Source of the DNA: a virus
Lineage: Duplodnaviria; Heunggongvirae; Uroviricota; Caudoviricetes
Length of the DNA: 12,369 bases
Direction: 5' to 3' (one strand)
Virus record (IMG/VR): IMGVR_UViG_3300037678_000008
Location: 1-12,369 of that record
Numbering within the stretch: the first letter of the stretch is position 1; each line of letters starts with the position of its first letter. The position numbers are program-made. Of the stretch, positions 3,001-6,000 are shown piece after piece.

Positions 3001-6000
3001 TTGAAGATCTGACAAAGCCTGTCAGCGAAATCATCACCAATGCCAGCGCACGTGTACCTCTGTTAACCATTGAGCAGCTTGCGGAGATCTATAGTCAGGC
3101 CGACTTTATTGAATCCTGGCTAAAGGCAGTACGGGACCGGGTTCACAATGAACTCAATGCCGGACATCCGGTACCGGGGTTTAAACTGGTAACAGGAAAA
3201 CAAGGTAACCGGGCCTGGAGTGATGAAGAAGCCGCCCGCGCGCTGCTGAAAGACCAGTTCCGTTATAAAACCGAGGAGGTTTTCGATCTTAAGCTGATTA
3301 GCCCAACCAAAGCCGAAAAACTTATCAAAAAGGCCAGTCCGCGCCGTTGGTCAAAAGTCGAGGCACTGATAACACGAGCTGATGGTAAACCAACCGTCGT
3401 TCCCGAGTCGGACCCACGCCCCGCACTCAATATCAACCCTGTAAATGATTTCGACGACGTATCCGACGATACGCTCGCCGCAGACCTCATCTGATTAAAG
3501 GAGACTTTCATGAAGATTAAATTAAATAACGTGAGATTAGCTTTTCCTGCTCTGTTTGAAGCTAAAACTGTAAACGGCGAAGGCGATCCGCGTTTCTCCG
3601 CAGTATTTTTAATGTCTCCCAAACACCCACAACTGGAAGAAATCCGTAAAGCTATGAAGCAGGTAGCGAAGGAAAAATGGGGGGAGAAGTGGGAGTCCAT
3701 TTATAACCAGCTGGAGAAAAAACTCAATCTGTGCCTGCATGATGGTGATGAAAAAGCAGAGTATGAAGGCTTTCCCGGCAATTTCTTCCTGAACGCAGCT
3801 AACAAAGCGCGCCCAGCTGTTCTTGATCGCGATCGTTCGCCACTAATTCAGGCTGATGGACGTCCCTATGCAGGGTGCTATGTAAACGCCGTTATCGATA
3901 TCTGGGCACAGGACAATAATTTCGGTAAACGCATTAATGCCTCACTCGGCGGAGTCCAGTTCCTGCGAGACGGCGATGCATTCGCTGGCGGCGGAGTGGC
4001 AAGCGCTGACGATTTCGACGATATCAGCGAAGGTGCTGATGCTGAAGCACTGATATAAGGATCAAATGGTGGGCGCTCATCGCCGCAGCCAATGACGACT
4101 GTGGCGGTGACGGAAAGAGAGCAAAAACCAGGTAGATTTGTTAAAGGCGCAGCGGGTGGTTGGCCCGCCGCACCTTAAGTACGTTTCCTGCTGTTACAGG
4201 AACAGCAGGATCAGCTGCAGAACAGCAATGACGATTCTGATAATCTGCTTAAGCAGTTCTCTGTGATCCGCCATCCGTTTTTCCTTTCATGAAAGGAATG
4301 CAGTCGTTCAGCTCAGCCCTTCCGTTTCCTCCGGAGCTGAACGAGTGCCACGTTGGTGCGTGCACATCGCATTCCAGGCCAGGGCTTTGACGACACCACT
4401 CGTTTCAACGGAGAAAAACCGGCGTCTCAGCAAGGAATGCGGGGCGTTAGCAACAACAGGCGGCATTTTAGCGAAGGTGTGTATGAGGAGCTACTTTAAG
4501 CTTGCAAAATTTTGCAGGCTTCCCGATAATCTCCTCGTTGGAGCGTGCACACCGCAAAATCAGCAGTAAAGTAAAAACCCCTGTTCCTCACCAGCTCAGG
4601 GGTTTTTGCTGTCCGTAAAATCACCACGTTTGACAAATCCGCCAGAGCTATCGCATACTGGCCGCACTACAACGTATAGCGGTCAACCGCACCCGATAGC
4701 TTTGCGGCTTTTTTATGCCTGTTTACAGGTATCGCCATATCTATGGCGGGTCGAGAGAGCCTAATACAACACCCTTTCGGGGAATACGCTCCGCCGTCTA
4801 TACGCGGTAGTTGAAGCCCGCCACCCTACTACCCTGATATTGACTCATCGCCCCCTTCCGGTTTATGCTCACCGAATCTCCCAAATGGAGATCGGGATTT
4901 GCAACCCGGAATTGTTAGGGGCGACACCAGACGCGCCAGTGTCTTTTTTATTGTCGCAAGCTTTGCCACGTTCGCATTATGGCGGGCTGGCGGGGGCGCT
5001 TCGGCGCGCCGGTTTCCTCTAACGCCGGTATTGCAAACCTCGTCAGTTCGCCACCCATATGAGATTTGCAACTCAGTGGTGGCGGTGAATTTCACCGTTA
5101 GAGGTAACAGTGATGGCAACTCAACTCATCCCCGTTTTCAACGGCGCTATCGCCAACGAAACCACCCTGCTCTGCAATGCTCGCGATCTGCACGCATTCC
5201 TTGGGGTAGGGAAAGTGTTTGCAGCGTGGATTACATCACGAATTGCAGACTATGAATTCGTTGAAAATCAGGATTATATCGTAACGTTTTCCAAAACTGG
5301 AAAGCGTAAAAATGTTCTTTGTAAGGACTACCACCTCACTCTCGATACAGCCAAAGAACTGGCGATGGTGGAGCGCAACGAAAAAGGCCGCCAGATACGC
5401 CGATACTTCATCGAGTGCGAACGCAAACTGCACCAGCAATCCTCCACGATACTGGCGCCACACAGGGAGTGTCTGCCGAAGATGGTTTACCATCACCGGA
5501 GCAAATACAACCCGTACAGAGCTTACGCATGGGACGGAGAGAAAAGCGTTTACGTCGGGTGCTATCCGACTGTGGATGAGGCTGTCGCTGCTCAGGAACG
5601 CTTCTACCGGAACGGCAGCACGAAACGCATTCAGAAGGCGCAGACAGCAGTCAGTGACGCAGAGAAGGAGATGTTCATCAACAATCTCCGCGCCGTCTGT
5701 CATAACTTCCGGCGCATCAATGAAATCTGGCGGGCGCAGTTAATGCCTGCTCTCGAAAAAATGGATTCGAAACTGGTTTACCAGTTGCATGACCGCTTCA
5801 GCGACAGCATGTGCATTCTGCCGACCATAGAAGACCGCATCGGCAGATATATCCCACCCACTTTACCTCGTTAATCCTTCAGTTCGCCCCTGCTCAGCCA
5901 GGGGCTTTTTATCACCGTTTAATTTACGGAGGACTTCGTTTTGTCTGAAAACACTGATTTAAAAAAGCAAAGTATCAGACCTGTAATATCATTTGGCCTG

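Follow-up and report, generated by a model that had tools for sequence, protein, structure and literature searches.

A putative toxin gene and a divergent small RNA gene at a direct repeat

The stretch of DNA analysed here (the window, 12,369 bp; positions 1 to 12,369 of the Caudoviricetes record IMGVR_UViG_3300037678_000008) carries a pair of direct repeats in the gap between a DUF2815 gene and an antA/antB antirepressor gene, a gap that is unannotated in RefSeq. The two copies, CCACGTTGGTGCGTGCACATCGCA and CCTCGTTGGAGCGTGCACACCGCA (coordinates in Table 1), are identical at 21 of 24 positions and lie 185 bp apart from start to start. The original prediction, made from the sequence alone, had placed them at 4351-4371 and 4536-4556 with 19 of 21 positions identical and a GTGCAC in each copy, and we recovered both the identity and the motif. 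This is the sole repeat of at least 19/21 (or 21/24) identity with a spacing of up to 300 bp in the window, and a repeat of this kind was obtained in none of 200 dinucleotide-preserving shuffles of the window. A search of both strands of the whole window with the 20-mer, allowing up to three mismatches, returned no site beyond the two copies (0.00 expected). Since no other copy of the box is present in the window, direct or reverse-complement, the window holds no second target.

On the minus strand, an open reading frame (ORF) of 26 codons begins 78 nt downstream of copy 1, after an AAGGAA-N7-ATG. Its product is identical to ShoB of Escherichia coli K-12, MTDCRYLIKRVIKIIIAVLQLILLFL, at 18 of 26 residues. 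When we ran a distant blastn of positions 4180-4615 against 5,426 complete E. coli genomes, 5,421 matched; the chromosomal matches listed cover 4180-4411 at 74-76% identity (E ~1e-35, and 8e-36 for the match at ~76%), and the annotation under the match reads 'shoB: type I toxin-antitoxin system toxin ShoB'. Copy 1 falls within this stretch, which is ~76% identical to the E. coli shoB loci, and the toxin mRNA carries the reverse complement of copy 1 78-97 nt upstream of the start codon. In the predicted fold of the leader, the ribosome-binding site AAGGAA is sequestered by a hairpin at 4281-4298, and an alignment fold of 12 leader sequences gave 12 pairs with compensatory changes, those of the ribosome-binding-site hairpin included. 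Further upstream in the leader, a block of 22 nt, TTTGACGACACCACTCGTTTCA (4386-4407), is identical in 19 loci that we fetched, and the exact 22-mer is found in viral and Escherichia contigs. The -10 hexamer TAAAAT, as read from the sequence, stands 56-57 nt from this block, the same distance as in K-12, and TAAAAT is also the -10 hexamer of shoB in MG1655 (PMC11264685 Table 2). From the position of this hexamer we predict a transcript of ~315 nt that starts at ~4458, has a leader of ~184 nt and ends at the hairpin at 4146-4174.

On the plus strand, a permissive Rfam scan matched ohsC_RNA (RF02495) at 4537-4612, over model positions 1-77 of 77 (42.3 bits, E 7.6e-5). The match begins exactly inside copy 2, at 4537, so that 4533-4536 of copy 2 lie upstream of the predicted start of the small RNA. 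Its terminator (4570-4610) consists of a strong hairpin, the 13-nt loop of which is conserved, and a U run after it, and the RNA as a whole has a predicted fold of -26.5 kcal/mol (z -4.0). An alignment fold of 10 sequences including K-12 OhsC gave six compensatory pairs in the terminator stem and a near-invariant loop. The predicted promoter of the small RNA is equivalent in position to the K-12 ohsC promoter, whose -10 is CATAAT (PMC11264685 Table 2). The 164 bp bracketed by the repeats consequently hold the distal toxin leader and two back-to-back promoters.

In E. coli K-12 a complementarity of 19 nt has been described between the 5' end of OhsC and the shoB 5' untranslated region (PMC3919570). 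In the K-12 locus, fetched as L002, the positional homologue of copy 1 is GTTATTGAGGGTGCATGCTGCAC in the shoB leader (L002:867-889) and that of copy 2 is GTTGTTGAGGGTGCATGCTGCAC (L002:1115-1137), and Rfam places OhsC at L002:1118-1194 with 106.8 bits. With the toxin mRNA made from the minus strand and the small RNA made from the plus strand, as predicted, the two copies of a direct DNA repeat end up in RNAs that are complementary to each other. In all, homology, architecture, pairing and co-variation, each determined by computation, indicate that the repeats are the RNA-RNA recognition pair of a type I toxin-antitoxin module homologous to shoB-ohsC, a reading to which we give a probability of about 0.88 and in which transcription itself is inferred.

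Table 1. Predicted features of the repeat locus, followed by those of the adjoining small RNA-like cluster.
Feature	Position	Strand	Description
Repeat copy 1	4348-4371 (core 4352-4371)	minus	Predicted target of the antitoxin, within the toxin mRNA's 5' leader
Repeat copy 2	4533-4556 (transcribed part 4537-4556)	plus	Predicted 5' pairing box of the OhsC-like small RNA
Toxin ORF, MADHRELLKQIIRIVIAVLQLILLFL	4194-4274	minus	26 residues; predicted hydrophobic membrane toxin, ShoB homologue
Toxin 5' leader	4275-4458	minus	~184 nt, structured; fold z -4.6
Predicted toxin promoter	4465-4494	minus	-10 TAAAAT (4470 to 4465), weak -35 TAGCTC or GTAGCT (4494 to 4488)
Terminator-like hairpin of the toxin mRNA	4146-4174	minus	Followed by UUUAA; homologous hairpin in K-12
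OhsC-like antitoxin small RNA (predicted)	4537-4610	plus	~74 nt: variable 5' box, A-rich linker, terminator hairpin
Small RNA promoter, sigma-70 type (predicted)	4502-4530	plus	TTGCAA, 17 bp, GATAAT; 9/12 consensus; +1 at ~G4537
Promoter in the small RNA-like cluster	4630-4659		TTGACA-18-CATACT, then a short hairpin and terminator at ~4666-4712
sRNA-Xcc1 Rfam match	4745-4830		60 bits, above threshold
Second promoter in the cluster	4840-4869
c4-a1b1 Rfam match	4863-4912		29.8 bits, below threshold
isrK Rfam match	4876-4949		45.4 bits, just below threshold
C4 antisense RNA Rfam match	4975-5058		70.6 bits, above threshold

The two copies co-vary among related loci

Pattern scans of viral, genome and metagenome contigs led to the identification of 13 further complete loci, bringing the total with the window to 14. 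They comprise phage-type loci (L005, L007, L008, L016 and L017), more distant ones (L019/L020, L021, L022, L023 and L024) and chromosomal loci of four Escherichia species; two further loci, L003 (E. coli LH50-c) and L018, hold an orphan small RNA gene and no toxin gene. The metagenome scan contributed only two loci, and a scan of representative genomes with the conserved 22-mer returned chromosomal Escherichia loci only and no additional phage-type loci. The toxin has exactly 26 residues and the motif IAVLQLI wherever the peptide search recognised it (L023 was not picked up by this search). In every locus a direct repeat is found between the toxin leader and the start (+1) of the divergent small RNA, with the boxes spaced by 184-190 bp in most loci from viral contigs, 221 bp in L022 and 248 bp in the chromosomal loci. 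The sequence of the box varies greatly from locus to locus and agrees within each locus, while the positions are conserved. When box 1 and box 2 of the 14 loci were paired in register, cognate pairs agreed at 17-20 of the 20 positions, whereas non-cognate pairs averaged 10.8, and none of 100,000 permutations reached the cognate total. Similarly, RNAduplex gave -38 to -43 kcal/mol for the cognate duplexes of the relatives and -10 to -30 kcal/mol for most non-cognate ones.

The internal differences between the two copies of a locus are themselves informative. In the relatives at least 12 of the 13 differences have C in copy 1 and T in copy 2, or A in copy 1 and G in copy 2, position 13 of L019 being the sole exception. 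Only one reading turns such differences into G·U wobbles, namely that of copy 2 as plus-strand RNA and of copy 1 as its complement in the toxin mRNA. The binomial probability of at least 12 out of 13 is ~0.002 under the assumption that all changes are transitions, equally frequent in the two directions, for events that are not all phylogenetically independent. A polarity bias of this kind would not be imposed by a DNA-binding protein or by a transposition mechanism. Co-varying boxes with wobble-only differences also show which positions matter in OhsC-ShoB pairing; in a 2024 survey the important pairing positions could not yet be judged for shoB-ohsC (PMC11264685).

These comparisons bear on what the repeats had been taken for. 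That they are non-coding regulatory sequence, as first proposed, is borne out by the comparative loci. The original prediction had in addition considered paired protein-binding sites. Such sites would be operators or iteron-like sites for a regulatory protein, flanking a control region. Two similar sequences of 21-24 bp with the palindrome GTGCAC do flank a promoter-containing segment, and CpxR has been reported to bind the K-12 shoB-ohsC intergenic region, but away from the repeats (PMC11264685). However, it is the position of the boxes and not their sequence that is conserved: they differ widely among loci while their flanks are conserved, up to 100% in L017. Moreover the two copies co-vary in each locus with differences biased towards G·U compatibility in one transcript polarity, an OhsC-like RNA has its 5' end at copy 2, and no further copies exist in the window. 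Sites for a protein are consequently very improbable.

The other proposal took the repeats for the ends of a small inserted element; a target-site duplication around such an element can be added to it. Direct repeats do bracket 164 bp, and one relative shows a boundary at each of them: between the window and the metagenome contig locus L017, identity is 100% across the toxin ORF and proximal leader and returns to 100% where box 2 ends, while the tract from box 1 to box 2 has diverged apart from the universally conserved block of the leader and the small RNA promoter's core. To this extent the idea contained a grain of truth. Insertion itself, however, did not hold up. Relatives might have been expected to lack the bracketed segment, but 13 of the 13 complete ones, the chromosomal shoB-ohsC loci of four Escherichia species included, keep both boxes and a homologous interior with the conserved 22-mer and both promoters, and there is no empty site among the 13. 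E. coli K-12 has this same arrangement at shoB-ohsC on its chromosome. In the loci without copy 1 (L018 and L003) the toxin gene, whose place is outside the bracketed segment, is missing as well. The segment contains neither a transposase nor terminal inverted repeats. An inserted element is thus even less probable than protein sites; from its sequence, the interval from box 1 to box 2 seems to behave as an exchangeable specificity cassette.

Finally, the plus-strand ORF at 4345-4569 (GTG start) could encode a real protein of 74 residues, in which case the repeats would be an internal coding repeat. The frame is indeed open and ends just before the terminator. No Pfam model matches it and relatives do not conserve it: among them the spacing of the boxes shifts by numbers that are not multiples of three, and in most of them several stop codons interrupt the plus-strand frames between the boxes. 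Two promoters and two RNAs already account for the region. The ORF exists, as originally noted, and appears spurious as originally suspected; of the explanations considered here we judge a coding repeat the least probable.

The two orphan small RNA genes deserve a description of their own. In L018, likewise in a related prophage, the OhsC-like small RNA lies at L018:4653-4722, and a deletion of ~270 bp that begins inside the toxin terminator and ends inside the toxin -10 box has taken away the toxin gene and box 1; its end points are not at the repeats. The box of this small RNA is identical to that of L016. In L003 the OhsC-like small RNA gene (L003:2986-3060) lies without a toxin gene in a related prophage of E. 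coli LH50-c. Antitoxin-only loci have been reported for orz and ohsC in E. coli too (PMC11264685).

The promoter of the OhsC-like small RNA presents one more feature, a palindrome, AAGCTTGCAAAATTTTGCAGGCTT, at 4498-4521, which overlaps the -35 and occurs once in the window. A TTGCAAAATTTTGCAA-like palindrome lies at the equivalent place in L005, L007, L008 and L017, and in L005, L007 and L008 a similar sequence recurs immediately after the terminator of the small RNA. Possible roles for the palindrome are that of an operator bound by a regulator of the phage and that of a -35 shared by the two directions.

Predicted pairing between the two RNAs of the window

In the window, the small RNA reads GUUGGAGCGUGCACACCGCA from its predicted +1 and the toxin mRNA carries the complement of GTTGGTGCGTGCACATCGCA, and 18 of the 20 positions pair. 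The 5' part of the small RNA and the minus-strand RNA of box 1 form a duplex of -34.5 kcal/mol, compared with -16.5 ± 3.6 kcal/mol for shuffled targets, of which 0 out of 200 were as good. Between the OhsC of the host and the toxin leader of the phage we obtained -19.3 kcal/mol, and cross-reaction is not predicted.

Several results weigh against the recognition-pair reading and have to be set beside this pairing. The two mismatches, at positions 6 (A·A) and 16 (A·C), divide the duplex into runs of 5, 9 and 4 bp, and the cognate duplex of the window reaches -32.1 kcal/mol by RNAduplex, compared with -42.0 kcal/mol when the small RNA is 'repaired'. For ZorO-OrzO, a discontinuous duplex required at least 17 nt of perfect base pairing, as measured with a single internal non-pairing nucleotide (PMC3919570). 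With two interruptions, this rule makes effective repression by the pair of the window uncertain. At 42.3 bits, the RF02495 match does not reach the gathering score of 50. Scanned against Pfam and NCBIfam, the 26-residue peptide gave nothing or sub-threshold chance matches, a strict consensus promoter scan missed the toxin promoter, whose -35 is weak, and RefSeq annotates nothing at the toxin and small RNA locus.

These points lead to the only live alternative, in which the locus is a module of the ShoB/OhsC type that is decaying or uncoupled: here the small RNA would no longer control the toxin, which would be silenced by the structure of its leader only or would not be expressed. The window is the sole locus of the 14 with two internal non-wobble mismatches, and its duplex is weaker than that of every relative (-38 to -43 kcal/mol). 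At -32.1 kcal/mol it falls within the upper range of the non-cognate pairs, and the small RNA would pair better with the target of L007 (-37.4 kcal/mol). The antitoxin-only loci L003 and L018 show that such modules erode, and the rules for discontinuous pairing established with ZorO-OrzO point the same way. In contrast, the toxin ORF, the ribosome-binding-site hairpin, both promoters with the -10 TAAAAT and both terminators are intact, and two unrelated E. coli isolates carry the locus with 100% identity. The pairing itself, at 18 of 20 positions, is also far stronger than with shuffled targets. On balance we hold decay or uncoupling to be unlikely, and we retain the reading of the repeats as a recognition pair. 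Owing to the two internal mismatches this pair may be leaky and repression partial. Both mismatches fall outside the loop of a small 5' hairpin, GCG-UGCACAC-CGC, and a first loop-loop contact could still take place at this hairpin.

Proposed mechanism

Under the recognition-pair reading, the toxin mRNA would be read leftward from ~4458. Its long folded leader would lock the ribosome-binding site of a coding sequence for a hydrophobic peptide of 26 residues. The antitoxin, a small RNA of ~74 nt, would be read rightward from 4537, from a promoter placed back-to-back with that of the toxin. Its first 20 nt, derived from copy 2, would form base pairs with the part of the toxin leader that is complementary to copy 1, and by analogy with OhsC/ShoB, OrzO/ZorO and IstR-1/TisB the resulting duplex would block translation of the toxin and/or trigger cleavage by RNase III. 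The toxin would thereby be kept silent while the prophage is present. Repression, toxicity and a benefit to the phage are what we infer for these genes.

Prophage context, distribution and significance

The window (equal to L001:4902-17270) is 100% identical to part of an stx2b-carrying prophage of E. coli JNEC-KY171; HY220605 is a further lysogen. The locus is present in only 2 of the 5,426 E. coli genomes. It was not matched in 50,697 deposited phage genomes, either by blastn of 4180-4615 or by tblastn of the toxin, and tblastn of the toxin against plasmids returned only chromosomal shoB in mislabelled records. The contigs of L005, L007, L008, L017 and L018 share the neighbourhood of DUF2800, DUF2815, antirepressor and DNA polymerase genes, with 50-98% protein identity. 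The L019-type locus is absent from E. coli genomes, which indicates that the family reaches beyond E. coli.

According to earlier work, the ShoB family is found essentially on chromosomes, occurs only in E. coli and Shigella and is not readily transferred horizontally (PMC2887945), and a survey of 2,212 E. coli assemblies reported one chromosomal shoB-ohsC copy per genome (PMC11264685). Intact relatives with different boxes exist in several prophage contigs, and of these at least one type does not come from E. coli, which suggests that the ShoB/OhsC family is being moved and diversified by phages. We tentatively propose a broader picture, which we consider possible though doubtful as a whole. 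ShoB/OhsC-type modules would not be limited to the chromosome of Escherichia; they would make up a family of mobile modules carried by phages and inserted in the early/antirepressor region of a single prophage lineage (that with DUF2800, DUF2815 and DNA polymerase). The interval from box 1 to box 2 would be a hypervariable, exchangeable cassette, different phages would carry pairs that do not cross-react with one another, and orphan antitoxins would persist. If this is true, a mobile family would fit a role in prophage retention or in competition between phages, and the mismatched pair of the Stx2b prophage would be a leaky or recently recombined variant.

Irrespective of this picture, an unannotated stretch of an Stx2b prophage would be explained as a complete type I toxin-antitoxin module that was missed by gene callers and by RefSeq. 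Most ORFs of 26 codons fall below the limits of gene callers. Such modules may influence the stability of prophages or the physiology of the host in Stx-producing strains.

Several observations concern the surroundings of the locus. Between 4620 and 5110, upstream of the antA/antB antirepressor gene (5110-5874), we found a dense cluster of small RNA-like elements and promoters (Table 1), which resembles the antisense control of an antirepressor of the P1 immI or Gifsy-1 IsrK type. The C4-like (4975-5058), sRNA-Xcc1-like and isrK-like RNAs were paired with either strand of either box. The duplexes were no better than with shuffled targets, and we rejected the boxes as targets of a nearby C4/P4-CI-like immunity RNA (seqA/seqC, a1b1 style). 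Positions 4625-4799, which include part of the sRNA-Xcc1-like element, have 80-95% identity to mostly unannotated DNA in 107 deposited phage records. These are mostly Stx-converting and Shigella phages (POCJ13, 75/02 Stx), and the adjoining ShoB/OhsC-like part is absent from all of them.

More widely, the window corresponds to an early/replication region, with genes for a LexA-family repressor, a DUF5906 primase, DUF2800, DUF2815, DNA polymerase, SNF2 and cytosine methyltransferase proteins, up to an integrase. To our impression this gene set looks non-lambda-like. Directly downstream of the phage DNA polymerase gene (6615-8678) lies a gene for a TIR-domain protein (8743-9504), annotated as such in the identical RefSeq record and also found in LH50-c, which could be a phage-carried defence or counter-defence gene.

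Comparison with known type I toxin-antitoxin systems

Prophage-borne toxins controlled by a small RNA antitoxin are known from RalR-RalA (rac), BsrG-SR4 and YonT-SR6 (SPbeta) and SprG1-SprF1, and RalA acts through a complementarity of 16 nt (PMC4041452). The sequences of these systems are unrelated to those of the window, and most of them use overlapping antisense RNAs and not a divergent gene with a repeated box.

Closer in design is TisB-IstR-1 of E. coli, in which the 5' end of a divergent small RNA pairs far upstream of a sequestered ribosome-binding site (PMC7708055). The TisB leader is processed and structured (PMC7708055), and blocking of a standby site together with RNase III cleavage, as in this system, is by analogy a plausible mechanistic model for the locus of the window. 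In contrast, toxin and RNA sequences are unrelated, and the SOS/LexA control of TisB-IstR-1 is not evident at the window locus.

ZorO-OrzO and ZorP-OrzP of E. coli O157:H7 are likewise built of divergent genes with a toxin leader of ~174-180 nt; the 5' end of the small RNA makes an 18-nt pairing and few variable nucleotides set its specificity (PMC3919570, PMC5397157). Their toxins form a family of 29 residues to which the window does not belong. Membership was rejected as RF02083 (OrzO-P) scored 26.6 bits against a gathering score of 60 and the toxin of the window, with its 26 residues, is ShoB-like and not a 29-residue Zor peptide.

The nearest known system is ShoB-OhsC of E. coli K-12, which occupies the yfhL-acpS chromosomal site whereas the module of the window lies on an Stx2b prophage. 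The sequence of the pairing box is entirely different in the two and the N-terminal half of the toxin has diverged. With a box spacing of 185 bp in the window against 248 bp in K-12 the intergenic region is shorter, and the region of the reported CpxR site is not conserved. Unlike K-12, the window has two internal mismatches in the pairing and an Rfam score below threshold. What the two loci share is a toxin of 26 residues with an identical C-terminal half, IAVLQLILLFL, a ribosome-binding site AAGGAA held in a hairpin, a leader of ~180 nt with the identical 22-nt block and a -10 TAAAAT. Also in common is a divergent small RNA, predicted in the window, whose first ~20 nt repeat a sequence of the toxin leader and whose terminator loop is conserved.

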